A DNA stretch of 61,427 nt from Bacteroidales bacterium. Lineage in GTDB: Bacteria > Bacteroidota > Bacteroidia > Bacteroidales > VadinHA17. The stretch lies in contig WOYX01000005.1 of the NCBI GenBank assembly GCA_011620595.1, positions 1-61,427 of the forward strand, given 5' to 3'. A model generated the notes under the pieces. It saw nothing but the letters and a program-made list of their open reading frames with translations, was not told the origin of the DNA and ran no database searches. Made by a program: the position numbers and the translations under genes. The number at the start of each line of letters is the position of its first letter. Within the stretch, counting starts at the first letter, position 1. Below, piece after piece: positions 88 through 16,138 of this stretch.

Positions 88-93
88 TGTTTT

Positions 94-919: not shown

Positions 920-1002
920 ATATACTGGCAGGGTATAATGACGAAGTATTTCAATTCTCCGCAGAGATTTTCAACAAACCCCTAACCATTTAAAAAACAG
1001 GC

Positions 1003-1965
1003 ATGAGAAGAGCAGAATTATTTTCAATTATCATTCTCTCAGCGGTTATTGCAGGATGCGGAGGAGGAAGCAGACATTCAACAACTGATTTCATCACAGT
1101 TGATGTTACAGCAGGTTATCCGCAGAAAGATCTTATTCTTCAGGATTTTATGGATGTTGAGTACATCCCGTTGGCGAGCGCTGAAGGATTTATTAATCAA
1201 GGTGTTGTAAAGGCAATTGGTGATGATATCTTATTGGTAACCAATCGAATTATGGATGGAGATATCTTTGTCTTTACACGAACGGGGAAAGGGGTAAGAA
1301 AGATAAACCGTCTTGGACGAAGTGGCGAAGAATATTCACAGATTACAGAGATAGTCCTGGATGAAGATAACAATGAGATGTTCATCATAGACTATCCCGC
1401 AAGAAAAGTAGTATATGACCTGTACGGTAACTTTAAAAGGAGTTTGCGGTTCACAGACACTGCTCGCTTTTACCTGACGCTTCCCTATGATGGTGACTGG
1501 GTACTAACGAGACCATCATCTGACACAGTCTATAGCTTTCACCCGGATGGTAAAATAACCTACCTTATTGTACGGACTCCTTCAATACACACTACAGATC
1601 CTGAAGTATTTCTTTTCCCGACTGTTATTACCGAACGTTATTATTTCATGCAAACTATTAAAAAAGAGTTTGACCTTGAAAAGATGAAAGGATTCCCGAC
1701 TACTGATCTGGTATACGACAAGCAGGAAGAGGCAATATTCAGATTTACTGTCTGCAATGATGATTTCTTGAGCAAGAAACAGGTTGCGTTCGGCACGAAA
1801 CCTGTAAGTCATGAAATTGCAAAATGTCAGTCTTTGGAAGCCTTAGACCTTGTTGATGCTTACGAAAAAGGGGAGCTAAAAGGCCCATTGAAAGATATTG
1901 CTGCTCGACTTGATAAAGAATCCAATCCGGTCATTATGCTGATAAAGCATAAGGAAACAAAGTAG
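1003..1965 (+). CDS. 6-bladed beta-propeller lipoprotein (DUF4934-like), possibly with an in-frame internal deletion
   Basis: Lipobox IAGC, VEYIPL, GRSGEEY, C-terminal ESNPVIML; 320 aa versus 406 aa for the related protein at 6522. Confidence 0.75.
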   Translation: MRRAELFSIIILSAVIAGCGGGSRHSTTDFITVDVTAGYPQKDLILQDFMDVEYIPLASAEGFINQGVVKAIGDDILLVTNRIMDGDIFVFTRTGKGVRKINRLGRSGEEYSQITEIVLDEDNNEMFIIDYPARKVVYDLYGNFKRSLRFTDTARFYLTLPYDGDWVLTRPSSDTVYSFHPDGKITYLIVRTPSIHTTDPEVFLFPTVITERYYFMQTIKKEFDLEKMKGFPTTDLVYDKQEEAIFRFTVCNDDFLSKKQVAFGTKPVSHEIAKCQSLEALDLVDAYEKGELKGPLKDIAARLDKESNPVIMLIKHKETK

Positions 1966-2119
1966 AGATTAAGTGCCTTATAGTACACATTATAGAGACA
2001 GAAAGCAACAGGGCCAGTCAAAAGAATTGCAGATACCTCAAAAATAACGATATAGATGAATTATCTTGGTATGATTTTCAGCTCTTTTTGGCCGATCAAT
2101 TAGTAAAACTTATATACAA

Positions 2120-3151
2120 ATGAAGAAGTTACTTGCGCTTTTTATGCTTTCGGTGATATGTTTTTCAGGGTGTCTGGTGGACAAATCGAATACCGAAATA
2201 ATACAAAAGGAAAGAGGCCGTATCGTAGATGTATCTGATAAGATAGTGGATGTTAAGACAGATATCATTTTTGGCAGTTCGATTTTATACATTATTGATG
2301 ATATATTAATTGTTGCTGATATGTCACATAAGGCTGATAAGTGCATTCATCTTTTCAACAAGAATACTTTTAAATACATAGCCAGCACCGGGATAATTGG
2401 AAGGGGTCCGGGGGAGATAACTAATCTGGGCAAAATTGGGATTGACGAGAAAAACAAGATTCTGTGGGTAGTCGACCATGGTAAAAAAGTGATGCACAAA
2501 TTCCCTTTGGACAGCATATTAGCAAATAATAACTTTAAACCAACCTCCTATCTGGATATGGATAATGAGCTGCTCCTTGTTGATTTTGGGTTCCTTAATG
2601 ACAGTATTATTCTGGGAAGAGCCATGCATCCATTGTCTCATTCCACATTTGACATGACTAATACTAAACTGAATGTCAATACTAATGAGATTGAACGGTT
2701 TGGTTATGAAAATGCTGAATGTTCAGGAAAGACGAAGATTGCATCCTTTAGCCTGTCAGTTGAGAACAATTTCTATGTGAACTGCTATGATGAGTGCGAC
2801 TTGATGACTATATGCGACCTCAACGGTAACCTGAAACACAACATATATGGCCCCGGGTGGAATGACAAAGACCAGGACAGAAAAGCATATTACTTCGGAT
2901 CCGATATATTTAACGGGAAAATCGTTGCAGCTTATATTGGTGATCTGGAATTTGTTTTTAAGGGAAACATAACCCGGGGAGCTGCGCCATCAACTCTTAT
3001 AATATTTGAGAAGGACGGCAGATATTTAAAAACGATCAATACAGGGTATGAATTTGAACGTTTTTGTATTGATGAAGAGAACAAGAGGATTATTGCATAT
3101 TTTATTGACAGGGAAGAACCGCTGGGTTATTTCAATATTCCGGTTGAATAG
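2120..3151 (+). CDS. BF3164-like/TolB-like 6-bladed beta-propeller lipoprotein (paralog A)
   Basis: Lipobox FSGC, GRGPGEI, LNDSI, C-terminal REEPLGYFNIPVE shared with paralogs. Confidence 0.85.
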   Translation: MKKLLALFMLSVICFSGCLVDKSNTEIIQKERGRIVDVSDKIVDVKTDIIFGSSILYIIDDILIVADMSHKADKCIHLFNKNTFKYIASTGIIGRGPGEITNLGKIGIDEKNKILWVVDHGKKVMHKFPLDSILANNNFKPTSYLDMDNELLLVDFGFLNDSIILGRAMHPLSHSTFDMTNTKLNVNTNEIERFGYENAECSGKTKIASFSLSVENNFYVNCYDECDLMTICDLNGNLKHNIYGPGWNDKDQDRKAYYFGSDIFNGKIVAAYIGDLEFVFKGNITRGAAPSTLIIFEKDGRYLKTINTGYEFERFCIDEENKRIIAYFIDREEPLGYFNIPVE

Positions 3152-3189
3152 TCAGGATTCTGAAGATGGAATGATAAAATTTCCTACTG

Positions 3190-3239
3190 GAAATTCCCGG
3201 AAATTCCCGAAAAAAACTTAAACATCTTATTTAATTTTA
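3190..3239 (+). promoter_or_regulatory. 2x GAAATTCCCG direct repeats plus -7-like box TAATTTTA
   Basis: Repeats 3190-3209, then 22 nt, then TAATTTTA 3232-3239; same geometry in five copies. Confidence 0.6.
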
Positions 3240-3295
3240 CATAGGTCAAGTTTGCCGTTTTACGAAATATTTGTTAAGGTATAAAAGTATAAATC

Positions 3296-3376
3296 AGAAA
3301 GAAAAGGGCAGAAAGCTTTGCCAGTATTGCCAAGTACTTTCTGCCCCGGCCTTTCACAAAAAATGAAAGGAGGTGA
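3296..3376 (-). ncRNA. Putative ~80-nt structured antisense sRNA, copy 1
   Basis: Minus-strand -7 box TATCTTTG (3387-3380); 5' hairpin CCTTTCA/TGAAAGG; 10-bp stem GGGCAGAAAG/CTTTCTGCCC followed on the minus strand by TTTTCTTTCT. Confidence 0.6.
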
Positions 3377-3483
3377 TCACAAAGATATCAAAACAGAGTA
3401 ATTAAAAAGCTAAATGAAGCATAATTAATGGCCTTGGCCACTGTGATTTCAAGATGATATTTTAGTAATTAATAATCGAAATT

Positions 3484-3735
3484 ATGAAAAGGAAAGCAAT
3501 TTTTGCAACAATCGCCAGCATAATTGTAGTGTTTACTATTCTTAGTGCAAATGTTGCCCAGGTACGCTCAGATGATAATGGTCTGCATAGTATTAAAATA
3601 ATGTCGCAGGCAAATGCGCAGGTGAATCCGGATTGCCCGAATGGTTGTCTTGATGGTGGAGCGGGTTGCACGTGTAATGGATATCATCCTCATTATCTGG
3701 ATTATGCGGAATATAAGAAAATGCAGCAGCAGTAA
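3484..3735 (+). CDS. Secreted Cys-rich peptide precursor 1 (NVEALA-like architecture)
   Basis: Basic N-terminus and hydrophobic signal, pro-region ending MSQANA-Q, core CPNGC-x6-CxCNG; three paralogs in the window. Confidence 0.85.
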   Translation: MKRKAIFATIASIIVVFTILSANVAQVRSDDNGLHSIKIMSQANAQVNPDCPNGCLDGGAGCTCNGYHPHYLDYAEYKKMQQQ

Positions 3736-3753
3736 TTATTTAACATTATTCTT

Positions 3754-3781
3754 GTATGGGCACAACCTGTGCCCATACTTT
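3754..3781 (+). terminator. Hairpin after peptide gene 1
   Basis: GTATGGGCACA-ACC-TGTGCCCATAC followed by TTT. Confidence 0.65.
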
Positions 3782-3804
3782 CATTTATTAAACCTTTTTA
3801 GCAT

Positions 3805-4839
3805 ATGAAAAAGTCATTTGCGCTTTTTATACTAGCGGTGATATGTTTTTCAGGGTGTCTGGTGGACAAATCGAAAACCGAGAAGATCCAGAAAAAAAGA
3901 GACAAAATAGTAAGCGTAAAGAATGATATTGTGGATATCAAAACTGAAGTACTATTTGGAAAATCTTTATTATATATTATTGACGACTACCTGGTTCTTC
4001 TTGAAGTCGCATCTAAAACCCCCAAGTGTATTCATCTATTTGATAAGAACACCTTTAGGCATATTGCCAGTACAGGTTTACTGGGAAGAGGCCCGGGAGA
4101 AATCACTGAGCCTGGCAATATTGGAGTAGACAGGCAGAATAAAATATTATGGGTGCCTGACTTTGGACAAAAAGTCATATGGAAATTCCCCCTGGACAGC
4201 GTGCTTAAGAATGAAGCCTTTATGCCTACAGAATATTTGAGGATAAACGATGACGTATTTATTGATAGATTCAATATCCTAAATGACAGTATATTTATAG
4301 GGAAAGCAGTGCGATATCTTGATGACAACTCTTACATAACGATTATGTCAAAACTAAATATTAGAAATAATGTGATTCAAGAATTTGGTTATGCAAATCC
4401 CCGGATTGAAGATGATAAGGCAATCTCTCTATTTGCGCTTTCAATAGCCGATAATATTTACGTCAATAGTTATTTTAAATATGACCTGATCACAATTTGC
4501 AATTTGGAGGGAAAACTTTTATATAATGTATATGGATCAGAGGGATTGAACAATGATGGGAACAAGAAATCATATTATTTTGGAATTGAAATAGCAGACG
4601 GGAAGATATTCGCATCATACATCAATGATTTAGCTGTTGTTAATGATGGGAACAGGCCGAAAGGGAATAGTCCTTCTAAACTCTTAATATTTAATACACG
4701 AGGAGACTATTTATTTACAATAGAAACCGGAGATAAGTTTTCTTATTTTTGCGTAGATGAGGATAATAACAGGATAATAGCATATTTTGATGGAAGAGAA
4801 GAAGCTCTGGGATATTTTAATATACCTGTTAATTATTGA
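3805..4839 (+). CDS. BF3164-like beta-propeller lipoprotein (paralog B)
   Basis: Lipobox FSGC, GRGPGEI, REEALGYFNIP. Confidence 0.85.
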   Translation: MKKSFALFILAVICFSGCLVDKSKTEKIQKKRDKIVSVKNDIVDIKTEVLFGKSLLYIIDDYLVLLEVASKTPKCIHLFDKNTFRHIASTGLLGRGPGEITEPGNIGVDRQNKILWVPDFGQKVIWKFPLDSVLKNEAFMPTEYLRINDDVFIDRFNILNDSIFIGKAVRYLDDNSYITIMSKLNIRNNVIQEFGYANPRIEDDKAISLFALSIADNIYVNSYFKYDLITICNLEGKLLYNVYGSEGLNNDGNKKSYYFGIEIADGKIFASYINDLAVVNDGNRPKGNSPSKLLIFNTRGDYLFTIETGDKFSYFCVDEDNNRIIAYFDGREEALGYFNIPVNY

Positions 4840-4914
4840 GGCATCCAAATGGGGAATCTAAAAAACATAAATGTAATTATTGAAGTGCACAACCGTAGAT
4901 TTTTTATAAAAGTC

Positions 4915-5952
4915 ATGAGATATTTGCAATCAATAGCGGCTCTCCTAATGCTGCTTGCTTCCGGCTGTGTTAATAATAATGAGAATAAAACTGAAATAAT
5001 ACAAAAAGATAGAGGTCGTATAGTAGATGTATCTGACAAGATAGTGAATATTAAAACAGATTATGTTATTGGGAAGGCTTTCTTATATATCATTGACGAT
5101 ATCCTGATTGCTGAAGAATTCTATCCCAAAGGAGAAAAAGTAGATCATCTGTTTGATCTTAACACATTCAGATATATTACAAGCACAGGTGTCATGGGCA
5201 GGGGGCCGGGAGAGATAACTATCCCAAGTGGTATATTGGTTGACAGGGAAAAAAGAGTCTTCTGGCAGCTTGATGTAGGGAAAAAAGTTCTGCATAAATT
5301 TCCTCTGGACAGTGTTCTGTCTGACAAAATGTATATGCCTGATGCTTCGGTAAAGCTGGTAGATACATTGCTTCTTGTGTATTATAGTTTCTTAAATGAC
5401 AGCATCGCTCTCGGCAAAGCAATAGAGCCTTTTACCGGTTCACCTTTTGTAACAATGGCCATGACGAAGTTTAATATTAATGCCGGTGAAATAAAAAGAT
5501 TCGGATACGAAAATCCGAAAGTAAAGGGCAAGTTTACTAACTCATATTTCGATCTGTCTGTAGAAAATGGGATATATATCAATTGCTACCTATTTAAAGA
5601 TTTAATGACCATCTGTGACTTAGACGGCAACCTGAAATATAATGTTTACGGACCCGGATGGGATGATCCCGAAAAGGATGATAATGGCTATTATTATGAT
5701 GTAGTGATATATAACAAGAATATCTTTGCTTCCTACCTTGGAAGTAAAGGTTCTGTTGTTGAAGACAACATGGAAAGAGGAGTATATCCCAATAGCATCA
5801 TAATATTCGACCTGGATGGCTCATATCAGAAAACTATTGAAACCGGGTCTGAAATATGCAGCTTTTGTATTGATGAAAAGCATAACAGGATTATTGCATA
5901 TTTTATTGACAGGGAAGAACCGCTGGGTTATTTCAATATTCCGGTTGAATAG
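4915..5952 (+). CDS. BF3164-like beta-propeller lipoprotein (paralog C1)
   Basis: Start moved to ATG 4915 (MRYLQ, as in paralogs C2 and C3); lipobox ASGC; REEPLGYFNIPVE. Confidence 0.85.
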   Translation: MRYLQSIAALLMLLASGCVNNNENKTEIIQKDRGRIVDVSDKIVNIKTDYVIGKAFLYIIDDILIAEEFYPKGEKVDHLFDLNTFRYITSTGVMGRGPGEITIPSGILVDREKRVFWQLDVGKKVLHKFPLDSVLSDKMYMPDASVKLVDTLLLVYYSFLNDSIALGKAIEPFTGSPFVTMAMTKFNINAGEIKRFGYENPKVKGKFTNSYFDLSVENGIYINCYLFKDLMTICDLDGNLKYNVYGPGWDDPEKDDNGYYYDVVIYNKNIFASYLGSKGSVVEDNMERGVYPNSIIIFDLDGSYQKTIETGSEICSFCIDEKHNRIIAYFIDREEPLGYFNIPVE

Positions 5953-5990
5953 TCGGGATTCGGAAGGTGGAATGATAAAATTTCCTACTG

Positions 5991-6060
5991 GAAATTCCCG
6001 GAGATTCCCGGAGATTCCCGGAAATTCCCGGAAAATCAATTTATTATGTTGGTATTTTTG
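5991..6060 (+). promoter_or_regulatory. 4x GARATTCCCG repeats plus canonical -7 box TATTTTTG
   Basis: Repeats 5991-6030, 22-nt spacer, TATTTTTG 6053-6060. Confidence 0.65.
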
Positions 6061-6095
6061 AGAGATCAATAATTAATAACCAATAATTTTATGCT

Positions 6096-6320
6096 ATGAA
6101 AAAACTGTGTCTTTGCGTGGGGATTTTAGCTTTTGCTATTTTCATTGGATCGACTCTATCCAATGTAAATGCTCAGAGTAACGAGGAACTGAGTAATGAA
6201 TACCCCGGTGGTGAGTCATATCTGGGTCCCGTATGTATGAATTCTTCCGGAACCTATTATTGTTGCAAGAATTCGTCAGGTGCTTGCGATAAGCCTGCTA
6301 CTTGTCCTTCCTGCCAATAG
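6096..6320 (+). CDS. Secreted Cys-rich peptide precursor 2 (different family, 6 Cys in the mature part)
   Basis: Signal peptide ending VNA-Q; mature region CMNSSGTYYCCKNSSGACDKPATCPSC. Confidence 0.8.
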   Translation: MKKLCLCVGILAFAIFIGSTLSNVNAQSNEELSNEYPGGESYLGPVCMNSSGTYYCCKNSSGACDKPATCPSCQ

Positions 6321-6341
6321 GGATAAATTTGGATTCTAATC

Positions 6342-6375
6342 ATGGGGGAAGCCTGAATATTAAAGGCTTCCTCAT
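6342..6375 (+). terminator. Hairpin after peptide gene 2
   Basis: GGGGAAGCCT ... AGGCTTCCTC stem. Confidence 0.5.
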
Positions 6376-6521
6376 CTTACAAACAGTAAAACAATACCAA
6401 GATGATTTACATTTTGGTTGACTTAATTGTCTAAGTTTAAAGTTCATGATCTGATTAAGAATCATATCATGGGGATACACAAAATATAGGATAGTAATAG
6501 AGTAAATTATTATTAAGAGCC

Positions 6522-7742
6522 TTGAAAAGAAAGTTCAAAGAGTTACTTACGGGTTTATTAGCAACTTCAGGATTGGCTGTCTTGTGCTTCTGCAACACTG
6601 CGTGTACAAAGCAAAATCAAGTTGATTTTACCAGGATTAGTATCGATCCTGAGAATGCCGGTACCTTGAAATATTCAGAAATATACAGTAAAATCGAAAT
6701 TCTACCGATTGAAACGGATACAGCGTTTCTAATTGATGAGGTTCAGAAGCTGATTGTTGAGAATGATAAATATTTCTTTCAATGCAATAACAAAATACTG
6801 GTTTTCAATAGTACTGGTCGTCCGCTGTATAAAATTGATAATGTTGGCAAGGGGCCTGGCGAATATATTGCAATAGGTGACATCATATTGGATGAAGGTA
6901 GGTTGGAATTATATGACAGCAAGCAACGAAAAATAATCCAGCATGATGAGAACGGTAGGTATCTGAACGAATGGAGATGCGGGATTGATGCTTATTCATT
7001 TGTAAAGTTAAACTCAGATCTGTATGCTTTTTATGTCGGTGCCGGAGGCTATTATAATAATACAAACAAAAAGCTGCTTGTCTTTTCAAGAAAGAAAGGA
7101 AAAGTAATTGACGGATTCATTGAAACACCCGAATATGAAATGGAATATATGCATTTTGCAGATTTAGTTAACTTTCAGCAATATAAAGAAGATATATATT
7201 TCCTTTACAGCTTTAATGATACCATCTATAACATTACCGGGAATGGAATATCCCCACGCTATTTCATCGATTTTGGTAAATACAGGTTGCCCCATAAATA
7301 TCTTGAAGGCAAATATAACGGAATTGAAGCCTTTTTCTCAGATTGTCTGAAATCGGGGAGCGCATTTAAGCTTATGGGATTCTTTGAATCTGACGAATAC
7401 ATAATATCATCTTTCTTTTATAATGGGCTTAATTATATACACTTCTATTATTCCAAAAGCAAGAGAGAGGCCAGAGTAGTGGATGCATACTTTGACGATA
7501 TGTTAGTAAAGGGCGTAGAGTTTAAAACATCATTCTATAATTTACCCTTTACTGTAAAAAATAACAAAACATACACTGTCACAAATGCTTATGAACTCAT
7601 GGCAAAAATAGACTCTTTAAGGAGTAAAGTGACAGTTCGTGATTGGGAGATTTTTTTGGAAAAGAATGCTGATATTATGGAATTATACAATAAAATATCA
7701 ATAGACAGTAACCCGGTCTTATTGATTGGATCCTTAGTATAA
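6522..7742 (+). CDS. 6-bladed beta-propeller protein (DUF4934/DUF5128-like), probable lipoprotein
   Basis: IEILPIET, GKGPGEY, PRYFIDFG, C-terminal DSNPVLL; TTG start. Confidence 0.8.
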   Translation: MKRKFKELLTGLLATSGLAVLCFCNTACTKQNQVDFTRISIDPENAGTLKYSEIYSKIEILPIETDTAFLIDEVQKLIVENDKYFFQCNNKILVFNSTGRPLYKIDNVGKGPGEYIAIGDIILDEGRLELYDSKQRKIIQHDENGRYLNEWRCGIDAYSFVKLNSDLYAFYVGAGGYYNNTNKKLLVFSRKKGKVIDGFIETPEYEMEYMHFADLVNFQQYKEDIYFLYSFNDTIYNITGNGISPRYFIDFGKYRLPHKYLEGKYNGIEAFFSDCLKSGSAFKLMGFFESDEYIISSFFYNGLNYIHFYYSKSKREARVVDAYFDDMLVKGVEFKTSFYNLPFTVKNNKTYTVTNAYELMAKIDSLRSKVTVRDWEIFLEKNADIMELYNKISIDSNPVLLIGSLV

Positions 7743-7826
7743 CTCCTCACTTAGTCCAGTATAAATATAATGCATTCATAATCAGCACTTGAAATGATTC
7801 GATATTTTGAAATTCAATCATAGTGA

Positions 7827-8456
7827 ATGAGAAAAGACTTGTTTTTTAATATCGTATTTACTATTATTTTTATTGGGTGTATAATCATGTCAGTGATTAA
7901 CCTGGCTGAAAGGAAGAATCTGTTAAAGCAGTTTCAGAACCTTGAGAGGGAGAAAGAACTGGGAATAGATATTGTTAGGGAAAAAGCCAGGCAAATGATT
8001 TTGCAGCACATGAGCGCCACGAATGAAAGAATAGATTCATCCCTGATTATTTACACCGCAAGAGGTGAAGAAGTGAAAATTGCCTCTTTATTGAAAGCAG
8101 GAGAAAAACTCATTCTTAGGATTCCATTAAATTCATGTGGATTATGTTATGATCAATCGCTTAAGGTTATGAATGAGATGGTCCATATTATTGGGAAGGA
8201 GGATTTAATTGTGTTGTTGCCTAAAAGTAGAGGCAGAGAGTTCACTACTTTCTTTAAGGAAAACAATTGTGTTGATCTTCAGTTCTTTTATACAGATGAT
8301 GATTTTAAGATATCAATTTTAGACAACAATGGAATCCCATTCTTTTTTACGACCTCTCCAGACCTAATCTGCCGCAACCATTTATTTCTAGAAAAGGATC
8401 CGGATGACTTTATATTTAAATATTTGATTTTCATAAAAGAAAATGTCATCCTTTAA
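7827..8456 (+). CDS. Membrane-anchored thioredoxin-like (CxxC) protein
   Basis: N-terminal TM helix; LILRIPLNSCGLCYD and a later IPFFF strand typical of the Trx fold. Confidence 0.6.
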   Translation: MRKDLFFNIVFTIIFIGCIIMSVINLAERKNLLKQFQNLEREKELGIDIVREKARQMILQHMSATNERIDSSLIIYTARGEEVKIASLLKAGEKLILRIPLNSCGLCYDQSLKVMNEMVHIIGKEDLIVLLPKSRGREFTTFFKENNCVDLQFFYTDDDFKISILDNNGIPFFFTTSPDLICRNHLFLEKDPDDFIFKYLIFIKENVIL

Positions 8457-8536
8457 ACTTAATTTTTAATTGGAGGCAACACGCATGCTTACCGGGAAAA
8501 GGTAGTGTTCCAATCAGTGTGTCCGGGGTAGAAGGC

Positions 8537-8620
8537 CTTTAAAAAGAATTATTATTTTGTTCTGGGTGATATTTTTTACAATTCCTTTGATTCAAGATTC
8601 TGGTGATTCGTGCCTGAAGA
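8537..8620 (+). pseudogene. Relic of a signal peptidase I gene (C-terminal fragment)
   Basis: 84 nt nearly identical to 15794-15877 (FKKNYYFVLGD..YNSFDSRFW..VPE), with a GGA>TGA stop. Confidence 0.85.
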
Positions 8621-9235
8621 AAACCAACTACCTGTCTGGAAATGGATGATGAGCTGCTCCTTGTTGATTTTGGGTTCCTTAATGACAGTATTGTTCTGGG
8701 AAGAGCTATACATTCATTGTCACATTCCACTTTTGACATGACAATGACAAAACTGAATGCCAATACTAATGAGATTGAACGGTTTGGTTATGAGAACCCC
8801 GAATGTCCAGGAAAGAAGAAGATTGCATCATTTAGCCTGTCAGTTGAGAACAATTTCTATGTGAACTGCTATGATGAGTGCGACTTGATGACTATATGCG
8901 ACCTCAACGGTAACCTGAAACACAACATATATGGCCCCGGGTGGAATGACAAAGACCAGGACAGAAAAGCATATTACTTCGGATCCGATATATTTAACGG
9001 GAAAATCGTTGCAGCTTATATTGGTGATCTGGAATTTGTTTTTAAGGGAAACATAACCCGGGGAGCTGCGCCATCAACTCTTATAATATTTGAGAAGGAC
9101 GGCAGATATTTAAAAACGATCAATACAGGGTATGAATTTGAACGTTTTTGTATTGATGAAGAGAATAAGAGGATTATCACATATTTTATTGACAGGGAAG
9201 AACCGCTGGGTTATTTCAATATTCCAGTTAAATAG
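8621..9235 (+). pseudogene. 5'-truncated copy of beta-propeller paralog A
   Basis: No signal peptide or lipobox; 8831-9165 matches 2747-3081 base for base by eye; fused directly to the SPase relic. Confidence 0.85.
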
Positions 9236-9274
9236 TCAGGTTTCAGAAAGGAGAAATTATAAAAATCATTACTG

Positions 9275-9334
9275 GAAAATCCCAGAAAATCCCAGAAAAT
9301 CCCAGAAAAATCTTAAACATCTTATTTAATTTTA
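9275..9334 (+). promoter_or_regulatory. 3x GAAAATCCCA variant repeats plus TAATTTTA box
   Basis: Repeats 9275-9304, 22-nt spacer, box 9327-9334. Confidence 0.6.
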
Positions 9335-9390
9335 CAGAAGTCAGGTTTGCTGTTTTGATAGAGATCATGAAAATAAAACAAGTATAAATC

Positions 9391-9475
9391 AGAAAGAAAA
9401 GGGCAGAGAGTTTTCAAGTTTGACGAAACATCTCTCTGCCCGGACCCTTTCCTTAATGAAAGAAAGGAGGTATAG
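9391..9475 (-). ncRNA. Putative antisense sRNA, diverged copy 2
   Basis: Stem GGGCAGAGAG/CTCTCTGCCC (compensatory change versus other copies), CCTTTC/GAAAGG hairpin, minus-strand TATCTTTG at 9486-9479. Confidence 0.6.
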
Positions 9476-9591
9476 TAACAAAGATAGTATTAAAGAAGGA
9501 ACATTCTTCCCGGTTGAAAAGGATGAAGCTTGCTTAACAGGCATAGCGGGTTGTACTTTAATTTGTTAAGGTTAATATAATTGAAACTATC

Positions 9592-9841
9592 ATGAAAAAA
9601 AAAGATCATTTTAACGGCTATAGGCAGTATTTTTGCTATATTTTCAATACTCAGCTTTAATCTGCCTATGAAAATCACAGGTGATATTACGGTCAAAAAC
9701 ATTAGAGTAATGGCTCAGGCAAAAGCGAGTGAGCTTTGCCCGAATGGATGCCTGCTTGATGGTGACGGTTGCATTTTCTATGGGTGGCATCCATACTATA
9801 AGGAATATAACTGGAATGATCAGACGAAATTGACACTTTAG
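9592..9841 (+). pseudogene. Frameshifted Cys-rich peptide precursor 3
   Basis: An A9 run follows the ATG; removing one A gives 82 aa MKKKIILTAIGSIFAIFSILSFNLPMKITGDITVKNIRVMAQAKASELCPNGCLLDGDGCIFYGWHPYYKEYNWNDQTKLTL. Confidence 0.85.
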
Positions 9842-9871
9842 ATCTTGCAACTGACCCTTAATTAGAACCAG

Positions 9872-9895
9872 GGGCGGTCACTCATTTGACCGCCC
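9872..9895 (+). terminator. Hairpin after peptide gene 3
   Basis: GGGCGGTCA-CTCATT-TGACCGCCC. Confidence 0.55.
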
Positions 9896-9922
9896 TAAAG
9901 ATTAAGAAAGCATTTGTGTGTT

Positions 9923-10957
9923 ATGAAAAATTTAAGTCTTATTGGTTTCCTCTTGCTGTTTTTAACCACAGGATGCAACAGCAAAATTGATAACAGGATC
10001 GAAATAACACAAAAACACCGCGAGAATATCGTTGATGTTTCTGGTAAGATAATCGATATCAAGCCGGATATTCTGATTGGCAAGTCATCGTTCTATATAA
10101 TTGACAGCATTTTAATCGTCGCTGAGTGGGAGCCGAAAGGAGAAATGGGTATCCATCTATTCAACAAGAATACATTTGAGTATATACGGAGTACGGGATA
10201 CATTGGCAGAGGACCCGGAGAGATTGGTGTCATGGGGCGGCTTGGAATCGACAGCAAAAACAGAATTATTTGGGCCCCTGATCATGGGAAACGTATAATG
10301 TACAAATTTCCCTTAGATAGTGTTTTGAATAATGAACAATTTAAACCTTCGATCAGGAAAGAGCTAAATACTGAATTATTCATTGAAAGGTTTGGATTCC
10401 TGAATGACAGCATTGTCCTTGGAAAAGCAGTTCATGCAATCTCTGCTTCTTCCTTTGATATGGCTATGGCCAAACTGAATATCAATACAAATGAGATTGA
10501 AAAGTTTGGCTATGAACACCCTCAGGCTATTGGGAAGAAATCAAATTCACTTTTTGCTCTTTCAGTTGATAATAACTTCTATGTAAACTGTTACTCTTAT
10601 CTTGATCTAATGACAATATGCGATCTTGAGGGAAACCTAAAGCATAACGTTTATGGCCCCGGGTGGTTCGAAAATGATCAGGATAAAAATGCTTATTTTT
10701 CTGATGTTGGAATAATCGGGGGTAAAATAATTGCATCATATATAGGAGGCAGGGGCATAATTGTCAAAGATGGCATAACAAAGGGTGCGACTCCTTCAAA
10801 GCTGATAGTTTTTAACAAGGAAGGTACCTATCTAAGAACTGTTGAAACCGGTAATGTTTTTACAAGTTTTTGTATTGATGAGAAGAATAGAAGGATTATA
10901 GCTTTTTTCTCTGACAGAGAAGAGCCGCTGGGTTATTTCAATATTCCGGTTGAATAG
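9923..10957 (+). CDS. BF3164-like beta-propeller lipoprotein (paralog D)
   Basis: ATG 9923 MKNLSL; lipobox TTGC; GRGPGEI; REEPLGYFNIPVE. Confidence 0.85.
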   Translation: MKNLSLIGFLLLFLTTGCNSKIDNRIEITQKHRENIVDVSGKIIDIKPDILIGKSSFYIIDSILIVAEWEPKGEMGIHLFNKNTFEYIRSTGYIGRGPGEIGVMGRLGIDSKNRIIWAPDHGKRIMYKFPLDSVLNNEQFKPSIRKELNTELFIERFGFLNDSIVLGKAVHAISASSFDMAMAKLNINTNEIEKFGYEHPQAIGKKSNSLFALSVDNNFYVNCYSYLDLMTICDLEGNLKHNVYGPGWFENDQDKNAYFSDVGIIGGKIIASYIGGRGIIVKDGITKGATPSKLIVFNKEGTYLRTVETGNVFTSFCIDEKNRRIIAFFSDREEPLGYFNIPVE

Positions 10958-10995
10958 TCGGGATTCGGAAGGTGGAATGATAAAATGTCCTACTG

Positions 10996-11055
10996 GAAAT
11001 TCCCGGAAATTCCCGGAAATTCCCGAAAAAAACTTAAACATCTAATATAATTTTA
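10996..11055 (+). promoter_or_regulatory. 3x GAAATTCCCG repeats plus TAATTTTA box
   Basis: Repeats 10996-11025, 22-nt spacer, box 11048-11055. Confidence 0.6.
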
Positions 11056-11109
11056 CATAGGACAAGTTTGCCGTTTTACGAATTTTTTTAAGGTATAAAA
11101 GTATAAATC

Positions 11110-11190
11110 AGAAAGAAAAGGGCAGAAAGCTTTGCCTGTATTGCCAAGTACTTTCTGCCCCGGCCTTTCATAAAAAATGAAAGGAGGTGA
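11110..11190 (-). ncRNA. Putative antisense sRNA, copy 3
   Basis: Same two hairpins and U-tract; minus-strand TTG-N18-TATCTTTG promoter with the box at 11201-11194. Confidence 0.6.
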
Positions 11191-11293
11191 CAACAAAGAT
11201 AGTAAAACAGAAAATTAAACAAGCTGCATCAGCTTGCTCAACGGTTACGGCCATTCTGAATTCGTAAAAATGTTTTGTTAAAAAACTGTCATC

Positions 11294-11539
11294 ATGAAAA
11301 AAAGACTTTTTCTTGCAACCATTGCCAGCATAATTGTAGTGTTTACAATTCTAAGTGCAAATGTTGCTCAGACAAGCTCAGATAATACTGATCAGAAAAA
11401 CATTAAAATAATGTCGCAGGCAAATGCACAAGTAAATCCGAATTGCCCTACGGGTTGCGTTCTACGTAAAGAATTCTGCTACTGCAATGGTATGTCGAGT
11501 CCCGACCGGGCCCCACCTTTAGGCCAAACCTTAGAATAA
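11294..11539 (+). CDS. Secreted Cys-rich peptide precursor 4
   Basis: MSQANA-QVNPNCPTGCVLRKEFCYCNGMSS. Confidence 0.85.
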   Translation: MKKRLFLATIASIIVVFTILSANVAQTSSDNTDQKNIKIMSQANAQVNPNCPTGCVLRKEFCYCNGMSSPDRAPPLGQTLE

Positions 11540-11565
11540 CCAAGCAGGAGATCTTCCAGATGCAA

Positions 11566-11598
11566 AAGGTGTGGCTGTTTTTCATACAGCCACATCTT
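11566..11598 (+). terminator. Hairpin after peptide gene 4
   Basis: AAGGTGTGGCTGT ... ACAGCCACATCTT, 13-bp stem with one G-U pair. Confidence 0.6.
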
Positions 11599-11661
11599 GA
11601 TATAAACATCTGATTCTAAGGGATTAAAACTATAGAAAGAGCAACAAAATATTCTGTATTT

Positions 11662-12693
11662 ATGAGATATTTACAATTAATAGCGGCTTCCCTTATATTG
11701 CTTTCTTCCAGCTGTGGCAATAATAACAAGACCGAAATAATACAAAAGGAAAGAGACCGAAAAGTAGATGTAGCTGACAAGATAGTGAATATTGAATGTG
11801 ATTATGTTTTTGGTAAATCCGATCTACATATCATTGATGATATCCTGATTGCTGAAGAGTCCTATCCAAAAGAAGAAAAAGTAGATCATCTGTTTGATCT
11901 TAATACATTCAGATACATTACAAGTACCGGAGTCCTGGGCAGAGGGCCGGGAGAGATAACTATCCCAAGTGGTATATTGGTTGACAGGGAAAAAAGAGTC
12001 TTCTGGCAGCTTGATGTAGGGAAAAAAGTTCTGCATAAATTTCCTCTGGACAGTGTTCTGTCTGACAAAATGTATATGCCTGATGCTTCGGTAAAGCTGG
12101 TAGATACATTGCTTCTTGTGTATTATAGTTTCTTAAATGACAGCATCGCTCTCGGCAAAGCAATAGAGCCTTTTACCGGTTCACCTTTTGTAACAATGGC
12201 TATGACTAAGTTTAATATTAATTCACAAGAAATCAGAAGATTCGGGTATGAAAATCCAGAAGTAACGGGCAGGTTTACTAACTCATATTTTGCTCTGTCT
12301 GTAGAAGATGGGATCTATGTCAATTGCTATCTGCATAAAGATTTAATGACTATCTGTGACTTAAACGGCAATCTGAAATATAATGTTTACGGACCCGGAT
12401 GGGATGATCCGGAAAAGGATGATAATGCATATTTTGGAGAGGTAATAATATATGACAAAAAGATTTTTTCAGCATATCAAGGCAGCTGTCGTATCATTGT
12501 TGAAGGCAACATGCAAAGAGGTGCATATCCTAAAAGTATAATAGTATTTGGCCTGGATGGCTCATATCAGAAAACCATAGAAACCGGTTCTGAGATTTTC
12601 AGTTTTTGTATTGATGAAAAGAATGACAGGATAATTGTATATTTTAATGACAGGGAAGAACCGCTGGGATATTTCAATATTCCGGTTGAATAG
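11662..12693 (+). CDS. BF3164-like beta-propeller lipoprotein (paralog C2)
   Basis: Lipobox SSSC; blocks identical to C1 and to C3. Confidence 0.85.
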   Translation: MRYLQLIAASLILLSSSCGNNNKTEIIQKERDRKVDVADKIVNIECDYVFGKSDLHIIDDILIAEESYPKEEKVDHLFDLNTFRYITSTGVLGRGPGEITIPSGILVDREKRVFWQLDVGKKVLHKFPLDSVLSDKMYMPDASVKLVDTLLLVYYSFLNDSIALGKAIEPFTGSPFVTMAMTKFNINSQEIRRFGYENPEVTGRFTNSYFALSVEDGIYVNCYLHKDLMTICDLNGNLKYNVYGPGWDDPEKDDNAYFGEVIIYDKKIFSAYQGSCRIIVEGNMQRGAYPKSIIVFGLDGSYQKTIETGSEIFSFCIDEKNDRIIVYFNDREEPLGYFNIPVE

Positions 12694-12731
12694 TCAGGAT
12701 TCTGAAGATGGAATGATAAAATTTCCTACTG

Positions 12732-12781
12732 GAAATTCCCGGAAATTCCCGAAAAAAACTTAAACATCTAATATAATTTTA
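12732..12781 (+). promoter_or_regulatory. 2x GAAATTCCCG repeats plus TAATTTTA box
   Basis: Repeats 12732-12751, 22-nt spacer, box 12774-12781. Confidence 0.6.
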
Positions 12782-12835
12782 CATAGGACAAGTTTGCCGT
12801 TTTACGAATTTTTTTAAGGTATAAAAGTATAAATC

Positions 12836-12916
12836 AGAAAGAAAAGGGCAGAAAGCTTTGCCTGTATTGCCAAGTACTTTCTGCCCCGGCCTTTCATAAA
12901 AAATGAAGGGAGGTGA
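12836..12916 (-). ncRNA. Putative antisense sRNA, copy 4
   Basis: Same architecture; minus-strand TATCTTTG at 12927-12920. Confidence 0.6.
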
Positions 12917-13022
12917 CGCCAAAGATAGTAAAACAGAAAAACAAACAAGCTGTATCAGCTTGCTCAACGGCTACGGCCATTGTGAATCCAGGAACATCTT
13001 TTAGTAATAAAAACTTATCATA

Positions 13023-13268
13023 ATGAAAAAGAAACTTTTTCTTGCAACTATCGCTGGTGTTTTTGTAATGTTTGCAATTCTTAGCGTAAATATTGCTCAA
13101 GTCCGCACAGATGATGCTAATTTGAAGGACATAATAATAATGTCTCAGGCGAATGCACAAGTAAATCCAAATTGCCCAACGGGATGTGTTGAAGGAGGAC
13201 CATGGTGCTACTGCAACGGTATGTCAAGTACTTGCTGGAATCTCCCTAAAGGTTCTACTTTGGATTAA
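13023..13268 (+). CDS. Secreted Cys-rich peptide precursor 5
   Basis: MSQANA-QVNPNCPTGCVEGGPWCYCNGMSSTCW. Confidence 0.85.
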   Translation: MKKKLFLATIAGVFVMFAILSVNIAQVRTDDANLKDIIIMSQANAQVNPNCPTGCVEGGPWCYCNGMSSTCWNLPKGSTLD

Positions 13269-13303
13269 TTGAATCAATATAACCTGAAGATTCCCGTTTA
13301 AAT

Positions 13304-13332
13304 AGTGTGGTTGTGAAAAACAGCCACACTTT
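13304..13332 (+). terminator. Hairpin after peptide gene 5
   Basis: AGTGTGGTTGT-GAAAA-ACAGCCACACT; the G-U pair favours the + strand. Confidence 0.6.
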
Positions 13333-13394
13333 ATAAATACATACGTTGTTTAGTGGGAAATGTAAATGAGAGAAAGTTAAATCACTATTACCAG

Positions 13395-14432
13395 ATGAGA
13401 TATTTACAAATACTGTTCACAATTATGCTTTTTATAATTGCAGGTTGTGGGAAAAGGAATGAGAAAAAAACAGAAATAGCACAAAGCGAAAGAGGTTGTA
13501 TCGTAGACGTATCTGATAAGATAGTGAGTATTGAAACGGATTATGTTATCGGGAAGGTTTTTTTATATATTATTGACGATATCCTGCTTACGGAAGAGTT
13601 CTATCCTAAAGGAGAAAAAGTAGATCATCTGTTTGATCTTAATACATTCAGATACATTACAAGTACCGGAGTCCTGGGCAGAGGGCCGGGAGAGATAACT
13701 ATCCCAAGTGGTATATTGGTTGACAGGGAAAAAAGAGTCTTCTGGCAGCTTGATGTAGGGAAAAAAGTTCTGCATAAGTTTTCTCTGGACAGTGTTCTGT
13801 CCGACGAAATGTATATGCCTGGTGCTTCGGTAAAGCTGGTAGATACATTACTTCTTGTGGGTTATGGTTTCTTAAATGACAGCATCGCTCTTGGCAAAGC
13901 AATAGAGCCTTTTACGGGTTCGCCTTTTGTGACAATGGCAATGACGAAGTTTAATATTAATACCGGTGAAATCACGCGATTCGGATATGAAAATCCTGGC
14001 GTAAAGGGCAGATATACAAATTCATATTTCGACATGTCTGTAAAAGATGGGATATATGTCAATAGTTATCCGTTTAAAGATTTAATGACCATCTGTGATT
14101 TAGACGGTAACTTGAAATGTAATGTTTACGGACCAGGATGGGATGATCCTGAAAAGGATGATAATAGTTATTTTTTTGATGCAGTAATACATAACAATAA
14201 AATCTTTGCTTCCTATCTCGGCAGCAGTCGTATCATTGTTAAAGGCAACATACAAAGAGGTGCATATCCTAAAAGCATAATAGTATTTGGCCTGGATGGC
14301 TCGTATAAGAAAACTATTGATACCGGGTCTGAAATATGCAGCTTTTGTATTGATGAAAAGCATAACAGGATAATCGCCTATTTCAATGACAGGGAAGAAC
14401 CGCTGGGATACTTCGATATCCCTGAATTATGA
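13395..14432 (+). CDS. BF3164-like beta-propeller lipoprotein (paralog C3)
   Basis: ATG 13395 MRYLQ; lipobox IAGC; REEPLGYFDIP. Confidence 0.85.
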   Translation: MRYLQILFTIMLFIIAGCGKRNEKKTEIAQSERGCIVDVSDKIVSIETDYVIGKVFLYIIDDILLTEEFYPKGEKVDHLFDLNTFRYITSTGVLGRGPGEITIPSGILVDREKRVFWQLDVGKKVLHKFSLDSVLSDEMYMPGASVKLVDTLLLVGYGFLNDSIALGKAIEPFTGSPFVTMAMTKFNINTGEITRFGYENPGVKGRYTNSYFDMSVKDGIYVNSYPFKDLMTICDLDGNLKCNVYGPGWDDPEKDDNSYFFDAVIHNNKIFASYLGSSRIIVKGNIQRGAYPKSIIVFGLDGSYKKTIDTGSEICSFCIDEKHNRIIAYFNDREEPLGYFDIPEL

Positions 14433-14537
14433 TTCTTTTAGGCCAATTATGACAGAGGTAGTTAATTCCAATCCCGCTTATACCAAGAAGTGTTGGATTA
14501 CCTGTTTGACAATCGTGAATTAAAGAACATTGTTGAT

Positions 14538-15068
14538 ATGAGACGTTGCCTGAGTTTGTTTCTCTGCCTGATCCCTTTAATCTCTTGTTCTAACCAGTCT
14601 GTTACCAGGGACCTGAAAAGCAATCTTAATAAAACAATCAGACTGGAAATGTTTGATAGCGTAAGATTTGGAGACAAATTACTGTCATATAAAGAGTTCA
14701 GACAGATGTATGACTATATTTCGGTGGTTTACCTTGAGGACGGATGCCAACCGTGTTATCCAAAGTTTATAGAATGGCAGAACATGATGGATAGTCTGAA
14801 TAAACGGAATGACTACACAATTCTTTTCATTATCCAGGGCTTCAGATATCATAATTTTATTAATAGAGTTAATGAAATCTCTGCATTTAACGATCATTAC
14901 TATTCCATCATGGATGACAGCCTTAATTATCTTCTGAATAACAATGACATACCACGATGGATAATTGACGGTTCTGTACTTATCGGTCCTGATAATAAGA
15001 TAAAAATGATTGGAGAACCCTGGGCTACTAATGAAATGACAGAGTTATTCTATAGTATTTGCCAATAA
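14538..15068 (+). CDS. Thioredoxin-like (CxxC) lipoprotein
   Basis: ATG 14538; lipobox LISC; VVYLEDGCQPC; C-terminal LIGPDNKIKMIGEP. Confidence 0.65.
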   Translation: MRRCLSLFLCLIPLISCSNQSVTRDLKSNLNKTIRLEMFDSVRFGDKLLSYKEFRQMYDYISVVYLEDGCQPCYPKFIEWQNMMDSLNKRNDYTILFIIQGFRYHNFINRVNEISAFNDHYYSIMDDSLNYLLNNNDIPRWIIDGSVLIGPDNKIKMIGEPWATNEMTELFYSICQ

Positions 15069-15161
15069 TATCATACCCTGCCATTAATTTACTCTAAAAC
15101 GGTAAATCGGGAAAAACCTTTTGGTTTAATCGACTAAACCTAAAGGCAGAATGTTATAAGA

Positions 15162-15986
15162 ATGATCAAATCAAATGACAAGTCTTTCAGAGGCTGGTGG
15201 TGGATAATTGTCGCAATAGTTCTTCTTGCTGTTGCGCTTAGAATTTTCGTTGTCTCACTTTATCAGGTTTCATCTGTTTCCATGGAGCCGGTTCTGTTGC
15301 CTGGCGATGTAATTATTGTCAGCAAGACAAGCTACGGACCAAGGCTGTTGAAATTAAGTAGTTATCTGAAAAACAAAAATGTTGAGTATTGCAGATTAAA
15401 GGGCCGAAGCCGTATAGAAGAAGGCGATATTGTTGTTTTTAACATGCCATTGCATAATACTTCATCTGAATTCGAAAGTCTCAATACTACTGGTTGTATT
15501 GCAAAACGAATTTTTGGCCTCCCTGGGGATACTGTGTTAATTGAAAATAATAAGGGCAGAAATGATGGGATTACACGTTTCCAGATTGAAAACCAATTAT
15601 TCCCTTATGATTCGTCTTTGCATTGGACACTTGAGAAGTACGGTCCACTTTATGTACCAGCGAAAGGAGATTCTATACATTTAACAGAAAAAAATGCCTG
15701 CTGTTATAAAGAAGTTATGCTCCATGAAAATCCGAAAGGACAAATTAAAGATAATACCCTGGTCTTAAATGGAGAGACTTTGACTGCTTATGTCTTTAAA
15801 AAAAATTACTATTTTGTTCTGGGTGATAATTTCTACAATTCCTTTGATTCAAGATTCTGGGGATTCGTGCCTGAAGATAATATTATCAGGAAAGTGACTA
15901 TGATCCTGTTTTCAATAAATCCTGATAAAGAAGGATTTAAAAAATTTCGGTTCAACCGGTTCCTTAGAACAGTCAATGCCCAATAA
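15162..15986 (+). CDS. Signal peptidase I (S26), locus-associated
   Basis: TM anchor, SVSMEP (catalytic Ser), IAKRIFGLPGD (catalytic Lys), GDNFYNSFDSRFWG. Confidence 0.93.
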   Translation: MIKSNDKSFRGWWWIIVAIVLLAVALRIFVVSLYQVSSVSMEPVLLPGDVIIVSKTSYGPRLLKLSSYLKNKNVEYCRLKGRSRIEEGDIVVFNMPLHNTSSEFESLNTTGCIAKRIFGLPGDTVLIENNKGRNDGITRFQIENQLFPYDSSLHWTLEKYGPLYVPAKGDSIHLTEKNACCYKEVMLHENPKGQIKDNTLVLNGETLTAYVFKKNYYFVLGDNFYNSFDSRFWGFVPEDNIIRKVTMILFSINPDKEGFKKFRFNRFLRTVNAQ

Positions 15987-16138
15987 TGAATACTGTTCAT
16001 TTTCTATGAGACTTAAATTTATCAGGCAGTATTAGCTGAACGCTTTTTTACTAATACTGACAAATCCTTTAAATGTTTTGGCAGATAGCATATTTCTGTT
16101 TACTTTTAAACCTGCTGTTTGATCAATACGAAGTTATT

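Follow-up and report, generated by a model that had tools for sequence, protein, structure and literature searches.

The window analysed here, a 61,427-nucleotide stretch (positions 1 to 61,427 of contig WOYX01000005.1) from the Bacteroidales bacterium assembly GCA_011620595.1 (GTDB lineage Bacteroidota; Bacteroidia; Bacteroidales; VadinHA17), contains four copies of a short structured element, each positioned just upstream of a gene for a small, cysteine-rich peptide. Read leftwards, away from the peptide gene, the element displays what would be the anatomy of a small RNA gene: a promoter box, a 5' segment repeating the 3' tail of 16S rRNA, two hairpins and a pyrimidine-rich tail. Our comparison with homologous sequences leads us to regard it, very probably, as a small RNA gene family that is new and whose members are linked to genes for exported peptides in Bacteroidales. 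That an RNA is produced from the minus strand is likely in our judgment, and we lean, with more reserve, towards the fuller statement that these small RNAs are counter-transcribed to the leader of the exported-peptide genes. Since the same promoter-seed-hairpin unit recurs in related bacteria, the element is likely to be a regulator of bacteriocin-like peptides that has so far gone undescribed.

Anatomy of the four elements

The elements occupy positions 3296-3387, 9391-9486, 11110-11201 and 12836-12927, in agreement to the base with the coordinates reported in an earlier note on this DNA; its placement of an element upstream of each CP(N/T)GC-type peptide gene was likewise borne out for all four copies. 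A genome-wide search found no copies in this genome beyond these four. On the plus strand, each element extends from an A-rich complement of the U-tract up to CAAAGATA, the complement of TATCTTTG. The order of parts that had been described for the minus strand is found as well: a -7 box TATCTTTG, a spacer of 5-7 nt, ACCTCC(T/C)TTC, a hairpin, a 10-bp stem and the tail TTTTCTTTCT. In each copy, (C/T)ACCTCC(T/C)TTC lies partly within a 7-bp hairpin, P2 (CCTTTCA...TGAAAGG; 5' arm CCTTTCA). Three bases separate P2 from P1, a G+C-rich stem of 10 bp (GGGCAGAAAG/CTTTCTGCCC) that closes a loop of about 21 nt.

All four copies lie on the minus strand, and the covariance-model matches given here include promoter and tail. 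Copy 1 (3290..3395, 105.4 bits) has its -7 box TATCTTTG at 3387-3380, the 5' seed CACCTCCTTTC at 3375-3365, P2 at 3370-3364 paired with 3356-3350, the terminator stem P1 at 3346-3337 paired with 3315-3306, and the U-rich tail at 3305-3296. Judged from this arrangement, its RNA would start at about 3379-3376, have its 3' end at about 3296 in the UUUUCUUUCU tail, and measure about 80-85 nt. The diverged copy 2 (9385..9494, 93.6 bits) has the box at 9486-9479, the seed TACCTCCTTTC at 9472-9462, P1 arms at 9441-9432 and 9410-9401, and the tail at 9400-9391; the compensatory pair GGGCAGAGAG/CTCTCTGCCC that had been noticed in these P1 arms, together with a different loop, is seen in the sequence. 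For copy 3 (11104..11209, 107.9 bits), the corresponding positions are 11201-11194 (box), 11189-11179 (seed), 11160-11151 and 11129-11120 (P1 arms), and 11119-11110 (tail); for copy 4 (12830..12935, 101.4 bits), they are 12927-12920 (box), 12915-12905 (seed CACCTCCCTTC), 12886-12877 and 12855-12846 (P1 arms), and 12845-12836 (tail). The minus-strand folds of copies 1-4 have z-scores of -3.9, -4.6, -4.2 and -2.4.

On the plus strand, the complement of the seed forms a strong Shine-Dalgarno (SD)-like sequence, AAGGAGGT, that is not followed by a suitably spaced start codon, as had been observed before: none of the four copies has ATG, GTG or TTG at 3-12 nt after it. AAGGAGGT occurs six times in the window against 2.0 expected occurrences, and three of the six lie inside elements.

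Conservation and covariation among homologues

The covariance model for which the earlier note had called uncovered relatives of the element, and in the comparison with Rfam, likewise called for, no family of Rfam 15 fits it. A nucleotide search of the BLAST type with a 116-nt query gave hits to the element in 13 of the 200 other family genomes covered, in three genera including the window's own. The covariance model, R1, was derived from 17 aligned copies via their consensus fold; it gave hits in 16 of 150 further family genomes (6 of 20 genera, again including the window's own, with at most 5 copies per genome) and in 4 of 150 genomes representing the order's other families (E 4e-7 to 6e-4). 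All fetched loci together gave 86 R1 matches, 74 of which are distinct, and the comparative counts of pairs, promoter, seed and linkage were taken on these 74 copies. These homologues have to bear the weight of the argument: the copies in the window were multiplied by tandem duplication of a whole 1.7-kb peptide-plus-lipoprotein unit, and their likeness is consequently no proof of selection.

The comparison backs the proposed minus-strand unit that runs from promoter to terminator with a conserved 5' ACCUCCUUUC. A -7 box of the form TAnnTTTG is present in 58 of the 74 copies, and TATCTTTG itself in 54 of them and in all four copies of the window. ACCTCC was found in 61 copies and ACCTCCTTTC in 53, and among the 54 copies having both, 42 place 7 nt between TTTG and ACCTCC. 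TAnnTTTG at -7 is the sigma-ABfr consensus, which passages of one study report for 81% of the primary start sites and 76% of the intergenic small RNAs (sRNAs) of Bacteroides thetaiotaomicron (PMC7366714); rpsU of the genome studied here is preceded by TAATTTTG, in agreement with this consensus. Box and CCUCC core tend to be present together (both in 54 copies, only the box in 4, only the seed in 7, neither in 9; Fisher p = 5e-5), and this test overstates independence, as the nine double losses come mostly from one related group and relatedness was not corrected for.

Selection on an RNA structure, which the earlier note had claimed from copies that cannot by themselves show it, is supported by covariation in the homologues. 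Over the 74 copies, 96.2% of the cells of P1 and P2 are paired, and 12 of the 18 pairs vary on both sides. None of 500 column shuffles attained any of the observed measures, and all measures collapsed when the partners were slid by 1-3 columns. In other families the letters of P1 are wholly replaced with pairing retained, as in GGAAGGGGAAGC/GCUUCCCCUUC.

The non-Watson-Crick cells comprise 92 G-U pairs on the minus sense, 21 A-C cells, which are G-U pairs on the plus sense, and 27 other mismatches, with the reservation, to be held against our interpretation, that the alignments were fitted to a minus-sense model and the pair counts lean that way. G-U pairs on the minus sense occur in 60 of the 74 sequences. 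In P2, the arm on the seed side is almost invariant, and the facing arm drifts via G-U pairs; one copy pairs CCUUUCU with AGGGGGG, so that the DNA palindrome is lost and an RNA hairpin is kept on the minus sense only. Of the 74 copies, 63 fold more stably in the minus sense than in the plus sense (means of -35.4 vs -32.0 kcal/mol). The nine bases past P1 on the minus strand consist of 67% U and 27% C and follow a covarying stem of 10-11 bp; on the plus strand, no U run follows the P1 stem. A simple terminator scanner missed the predicted terminators of the elements because their loops exceed its 8-nt limit.

Minus-strand open reading frames (ORFs) over the elements (44-62 aa) traverse the P1 loop, a part that varies in length and sequence from one relative to the next, and the element has no conserved reading frame. 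In some relatives, the P1 loop has grown to 60-100 nt and is made up of imperfect 7-nt units of the type GGGCACA/GAGCTCA (for example L023:1477-1652, L052:1501-1622).

Linkage to exported-peptide genes

An ORF of 47-151 aa on the opposite strand starts within 260 nt of the element in 63 of the 74 copies, and in 49 of these 63 linked copies its start lies 59-99 nt past the element; among the 11 copies without a linked ORF, four lie less than 500 nt from the end of the available sequence on the side in question. The linked peptides are small and cysteine-rich, and 45 of them possess a leader ending in (K/R)GG. When such GG-leader peptides were compared with TIGR04149, all five that were tested matched at 12.7-23.9 bits, below the 25-bit cut-off, a likeness that amounts to leader resemblance and not to membership in this family. 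Two peptides next to elements in another family are NVEALA proteins (PF14055; 42.5 and 39.8 bits at a gathering threshold of 27). Three window peptides and the close relative encoded at locus L016 gave no hit to PF14055 even at E <=10, and the window peptides thus share only the layout with the NVEALA family. Given that these peptide types are unrelated, it is the upstream region and not the peptide that the loci have in common.

Thioredoxin-like proteins, beta-propeller lipoproteins and a signal peptidase are encoded in the neighborhood, and the upstream neighbors in relatives end in thioredoxin-like motifs, as read by eye from the sequences. In this make-up the loci resemble those of secreted, disulfide-bonded bacteriocins such as the bacteroidetocins, as described in passages of PMC6671954. 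A full-text literature search turned up no paper on the NVEALA family.

A candidate sense transcript and the proposed mode of action

For an RNA made from the minus strand to be antisense rather than divergent, a transcript entering the peptide gene has to cross the element. A candidate sense -7 box, CAAGTTTG, lies on the plus strand at 3247-3254, about 50 nt upstream of the small-RNA terminator, and matches TAnnTTTG at 7 of 8 positions. It is kept in the four copies as CA(A/G)GTTTG, with the element placed between box and start codon. The peptide-lipoprotein unit of the window that lacks an element has a perfect box, TATTTTTG, at 6053-6060, 36 nt before the start codon and just after a set of GGA(A/G)ATTCCC repeats, and the candidate sense box aligns with it within about 5 nt. 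This shared position fits a leader across the element, which favors a counter-transcribed RNA; if CAAGTTTG is used, the leader of the peptide mRNA would be about 225 nt long and would cross the small RNA gene. A perfect TAnnTTTG on the plus strand between element and start codon exists at only one of 43 loci (L022), and no motif of an alternative sigma factor was recognised by eye.

Tandem 10-nt repeats, GGAAATTCCC, are present in two copies on the plus strand at 3189-3208 and in 2-4 copies in other intergenic regions of the island that holds the array. These GGA(A/G)ATTCCC repeats recur at 9276-9305 (GGAAAATCCCA, before copy 2), at 5994-6033 and at matching places before copies 3 and 4. They sit after each lipoprotein gene and before the candidate sense promoter, and may serve as the binding site of a regulator.

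Two further hairpins are present between the element and the start codon, for which the plus sense gives the better fold at 20 of 27 loci. One, located 45-50 nt before the peptide start, has the conserved loop (U)GAAAUGAUA(A/U)A and covarying stems (30 loci). As DNA, this loop reads (T)GAAATGATA(A/T)A, for example about 20-40 nt past the element at locus L060, at L102 and at L103, and in weaker form at 9510-9530 of the window. It is often preceded by the other hairpin, CCGYGAC...GTTGCGG, which has G-U pairs in the plus sense. Both hairpins are absent from Rfam. Their preference for the plus sense suggests that a sense RNA starts at or before them, either within or upstream of the small RNA gene, and a sense transcript running over the element is thus plausible.

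These data lend themselves to a model in which the element would be a small non-coding RNA gene. Its product would measure about 80-90 nt in the window and as much as about 170 nt at other loci with a longer terminator loop. The gene would be transcribed from the strand opposite to that of the peptide genes, at the Bacteroidota primary-sigma promoter TATCTTTG, and transcription would stop at an intrinsic terminator formed by stem P1 and the U/C tail. The first 11 or so nucleotides of the RNA, (C/U)ACCUCCUUUC, would equal the 3' tail of 16S rRNA, with ACCUCC predicted to be single-stranded and CCUUUC(U/A) forming the 5' arm of P2. The RNA would be counter-transcribed to sense transcripts entering the peptide gene, which would be represented by the leader of about 225 nt in the window and by read-through from the upstream gene in relatives. 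Pairing would begin between the free, G/C-rich 5' end of the small RNA and the free GGAGGU of the leader, would then extend over about 85 bp, and the resulting duplex would determine how much peptide mRNA survives or is made. The comparison of homologues speaks directly to the promoter box, the seed, the structure, the strand and the linkage to peptide genes; from this anatomy we infer that the RNA would be expressed, that a sense transcript would cover the element and that their pairing would have an effect.

The 16S-like 5' end and possible targets in trans

A resemblance of GATCACCTCCTTTC in copy 1 to the 16S rRNA tail had been noted. As the window's assembly is devoid of a 16S gene, we used genomes of the same genus for the comparison, and the 16S genes in four of these end in ...GGAACACCTCCTTTCT. 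The shared stretch is CACCTCCTTTC, 11 nt in length; the GAT that precedes it is not shared. The 5' bases of the small RNA hence repeat the last 11-12 nt of 16S rRNA, the anti-SD core included, and this literal copy of the ribosomal anti-SD is the most interesting feature of the element. According to three reports, the ribosomal anti-SD of Bacteroidia is sequestered by bS21, bS18 and bS6, and SD sequences are ignored (PMC7797042, PMC9976891, PMC13000453).

Several candidate targets of the seed were considered. The rpsU gene of this genome lacks an SD, unlike the SD-led rpsU of Flavobacterium, and was ruled out. The genes of the island were set aside as well: pairing of their start regions with the seed does not rise above the genome background, as assessed with crude ORF calls of which many are spurious. 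The island gene starts rank 865-4458 among 4625 crude ORF starts, and the peptide genes reach -6.7 to -9.3 kcal/mol, with the genome mean being -8.7. A few genes elsewhere in the genome have AAAGGAGGTG-type sites at their start codons, one of which, AAAGGAGGTGAAGCATG, is found before a 197-aa ORF on contig C41. In relatives, 24 of the 45 GG-leader peptides spell their Gly-Gly site GGAGG, with matches to the seed of up to 9-10 nt (AAAGGAGGTG); this may be explained by codon usage in AT-rich genes and represents a weak lead. The window peptides have no GGAGG at a Gly-Gly site, and a single GGAGG is present late in gene 4. The loop of the downstream hairpin was rejected as a target of the seed: the complementarity would be too weak, extending to 8 nt with UGAAAGGA in a minority of loci and to no more than 5 nt with UGAAAUGA.

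Weighing of alternative explanations

A number of observations weigh against a small RNA counter-transcribed to the peptide leader. At least one A-C cell on the proposed strand is present in 19 of the 74 sequences, and the copy 4 variant, which had been described correctly, places CCCTTC opposite GAAAGG in P2, a C-A mismatch on the minus strand that becomes a G-U pair on the plus strand. The tail is broken by C, as in UUCUCUUUC. Nine of the 74 copies, mostly from one group (TATCTTCGCATAGGCAAAACCC), keep hairpins and tail without a canonical -7 box and CCUCC, and the hairpins are therefore perhaps kept for another reason. The candidate sense box of the window is imperfect, and in the 120 nt before the element a perfect box on the plus strand was found at one locus, with none outside the window's clade. 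The constant distance between element and peptide gene could reflect promoter architecture instead of the function of an RNA. Finally, full antisense complementarity alone leaves the identity of the 5' end with the 16S tail across families unaccounted for.

A rival reading accepts the RNA as real and has its conserved 16S-like 5' end act elsewhere than at the locus it comes from, as a trans-acting regulator on GGAGG sequences of other mRNAs, in the manner of the C-rich sRNAs of Firmicutes, or as a decoy for proteins that bind the 16S tail. The seed is invariant across families while the rest of the RNA drifts, an invariance that a purely cis-antisense RNA would not need, and it equals the last 11-12 nt of 16S rRNA in the same genus, in a class whose ribosomal anti-SD is described as sequestered in the reports cited above. 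Some genes of the genome have strong SD-like starts, such as AAAGGAGGTGAAGCATG, and GGAGG marks the Gly-Gly site in 24 of the 45 GG-leader peptides. Against this stand the SD-less rpsU, the lack of above-background complementarity at the island gene starts, and the fact that GGA as first Gly codon in 24 of 45 cases is within reach of codon usage, with window peptides devoid of such a site save for the one GGAGG in gene 4; moreover, the strict positional tie to peptide genes would be left unaccounted for. We consider action in trans unlikely. More specifically, the RNA might be a free, abundant, functional stand-in for the 16S 3' tail that soaks up SD-like mRNAs or tail-holding proteins, which we view as quite improbable; if true, it would couple the output of bacteriocin-like peptides to a switch in ribosomal message choice.

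Other explanations dispense with a regulatory minus-strand RNA or change the nature of its target. The earlier note had itself offered a plus-strand leader structure as an alternative. In the version weighed here, a strong, partly sequestered SD-like site would provide a landing place for a ribosome or protein, or the leader would carry a tiny upstream ORF, and the minus-strand features would be incidental. The position and orientation of the element are indeed fixed relative to the peptide gene, plus-strand folds of the window copies beat shuffles as well (z -2.6 to -3.4), the copy 4 variant pairs on the plus strand only, and an NTG follows GGAGG at 4-7 nt in many copies, with one group reading ATG CGA AGA TAA as seen by eye. 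This NTG is not conserved, however: ACG, CCG, AAG, GCG and ATC occur in its place, no start codon, frame or stop is common to the copies, the window copies have no start at all, and a conserved mini-ORF behind the SD-like site was accordingly ruled out. With 92 G-U cells on the minus sense vs 21 on the plus sense, folding that is stabler in the minus sense for 63 of 74 copies, a peptide start codon located about 100 nt away, and a perfect TATCTTTG and a pyrimidine tail left without a role, the two hairpins of the element speak against this alternative, which is more in line with the plus-sense preference of the downstream hairpins; as an account of the element, it seems improbable. Little credence can also be given to a DNA-level insulator, that is, a strong constitutive promoter firing away from the peptide gene together with a terminator, which would act through promoter competition or collision with read-through, P1 doubling as terminator of the upstream gene. 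The place of the element is always between the peptide gene and the end of an upstream gene of the same direction, nine copies have the hairpins but no seed, and a scan of 2500-14500 found no plus-strand terminator for the upstream lipoprotein genes; yet it is the transcribed 5' sequence that is most conserved across families, P1 changes freely as long as it is paired, P2 is kept through G-U pairs that are relevant in RNA only, and no U run stands behind P1 on the plus strand. The layout of a small peptide gene with a nearby small RNA on the opposite strand had also suggested a type I toxin-antitoxin system, in which the RNA would repress a peptide toxic to its own cell. This analogy breaks down on the peptides, which are cysteine-rich, 47-151 aa long and equipped with a GG-type export leader or an NVEALA-like signal N-terminus, on neighboring genes (thioredoxin-like proteins, beta-propeller lipoproteins, signal peptidase) that match the make-up of a secreted bacteriocin-like locus in passages of PMC6671954, and on an RNA that overlaps neither the coding region nor the start codon; we deem it very improbable indeed.

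Relation to known RNAs and significance

Counter-transcribed RNAs and type I antitoxins are small structured RNAs that lie opposite the 5' part of a neighboring transcript and start pairing from a free G/C-rich stretch. The counter-transcribed small RNA favored here differs from them in that the neighbor encodes an exported peptide rather than a membrane toxin or a replication protein, and in that the overlap of the two transcripts is predicted. Firmicutes sRNAs of the RsaE/RoxS type target SD sequences with a C-rich pyrimidine seed, carry UCCC motifs in loops, and operate in hosts whose ribosomes use the SD. In the element, by contrast, the 5' end reproduces the 16S tail letter for letter, in a class that hides its own anti-SD, according to PMC13000453.

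The nearest described RNAs are GibS and FopS of gut Bacteroidaceae, as portrayed in passages of PMC11697453. FopS RNAs measure 65-70 nt, are made from a canonical sigma-ABfr promoter and exist in multiple copies, and FopS-13 has a predicted terminator hairpin; the conserved single-stranded 5' seed of the GibS/FopS RNAs pairs with 5' regions of mRNAs, and they repress mRNAs of SusC-type transporters (PMC11697453). The element resembles them in its shortness, canonical promoter, multiple copies and single-stranded 5' seed. It is set apart by its tie to peptide genes and its anti-SD, a distinction drawn from the description in these passages and not from a comparison of seed letters, and by its carriers, which are uncultured environmental Bacteroidales known from metagenome-assembled genomes (MAGs). 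Bacteroides-1, Bacteroidales-1, Bacteroid-trp, Flavo-1 and other Bacteroidota families of Rfam are likewise conserved intergenic structured RNAs, and none of them matches the element. At gathering threshold, Rfam 15 gave no match in the whole window; at E <=10, four chance-level matches (14-22 bits) were obtained in 2500-14500, none of which touches an element, and 20 related loci searched at E <=1 yielded nothing on the elements and, for these Bacteroidota families, only a weak, chance-level match to Flavo-1 (24 bits vs a threshold of 42) away from the element. No description of the element was found in print, and supplements with lists of B. thetaiotaomicron sRNAs might bear on an earlier sighting; passages of PMC6671954 and PMC10352776 do not mention it.

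A function is known for few of the small RNAs in Bacteroidota, and passages of PMC7366714 term the action of sRNAs in a phylum without Shine-Dalgarno sequences an open question. The family described here combines a clear anatomy with a strict tie to genes for small, exported, cysteine-rich peptides of the NVEALA kind or with GG leaders of the kind found in bacteroidetocins and ribosomally synthesized and post-translationally modified peptides (RiPPs). If confirmed, it would offer a handle on the control of peptide loci and a marker for such loci in metagenomes, as well as a test case for a free anti-SD in cells whose ribosomes hide theirs.

Beyond the genomes searched with the model, an exact-pattern scan of species-representative genomes retrieved 31 stretches, and every carrier is an uncultured MAG. 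They are mostly labelled Bacteroidales, Bacteroidetes, Bacteroidia, Rikenellaceae or Lentimicrobiaceae. Three contigs with a typical element bear labels from outside the Bacteroidota, namely L068 and L077 (bin Methanomethylovorans) and L090 (bin Bacillota); these labels are most likely binning errors.

The low-G+C island and its peptide-lipoprotein units

Positions 1-16000 of the window form an island of low G+C content (35-38%, against 50.7% for the genome as a whole and about 51% for the remainder of the window) that may have been acquired horizontally. On its left side the island reaches the start of the contig, and its right edge is without a tRNA. It contains the array of peptide, lipoprotein and small-RNA genes, two ORFs of thioredoxin-like size and a signal peptidase I. 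The array consists of tandem units of a small peptide gene and a gene for a lipoprotein of about 345 aa related to DUF5128, a family of six-bladed beta-propellers. An element stands just upstream of four of the island's five peptide genes.

All five peptide genes are on the plus strand. Peptide gene 1 (3484..3735, 83 aa) starts 89 nt past the element, encodes a hydrophobic N-terminus followed by ...MSQANAQVNPDCPNGC..., and has a plus-strand terminator-like hairpin behind it at 3754-3778. Peptide genes 3 (11294..11539) and 4 (13023..13268) each specify 81 aa with ...NPNCPTGC.... Peptide gene 5 (6096-6320, 74 aa), whose product is likewise small and cysteine-rich, is the one without an element and serves as a natural comparison. 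The window peptides have a signal-like N-terminus followed by ...ANAQVNP(D/N)CP(N/T)GC..., and they matched no family in Pfam and NCBIfam. In peptide gene 2 (9592..9841), a run of nine A (9595-9603), one too many, disrupts the frame that begins with the ATG at 9592; an open frame from 9668 (57 aa) encodes ...ELCPNGC.... In its relative at L016 the run counts eight A and the frame is intact, and the break in the window could reflect a pseudogene, slipped-strand switching or an assembly error.

A 197-aa ORF at 8642-9235 corresponds only to the C-terminal part of the lipoprotein paralogues of about 345 aa. Likeness of this region at the DNA level to the gene at 2120-3151 starts at about 8576 (75% over 32 nt) and reaches 92% from 8621 onwards, and the ORF looks like a 5'-truncated copy of a lipoprotein gene.

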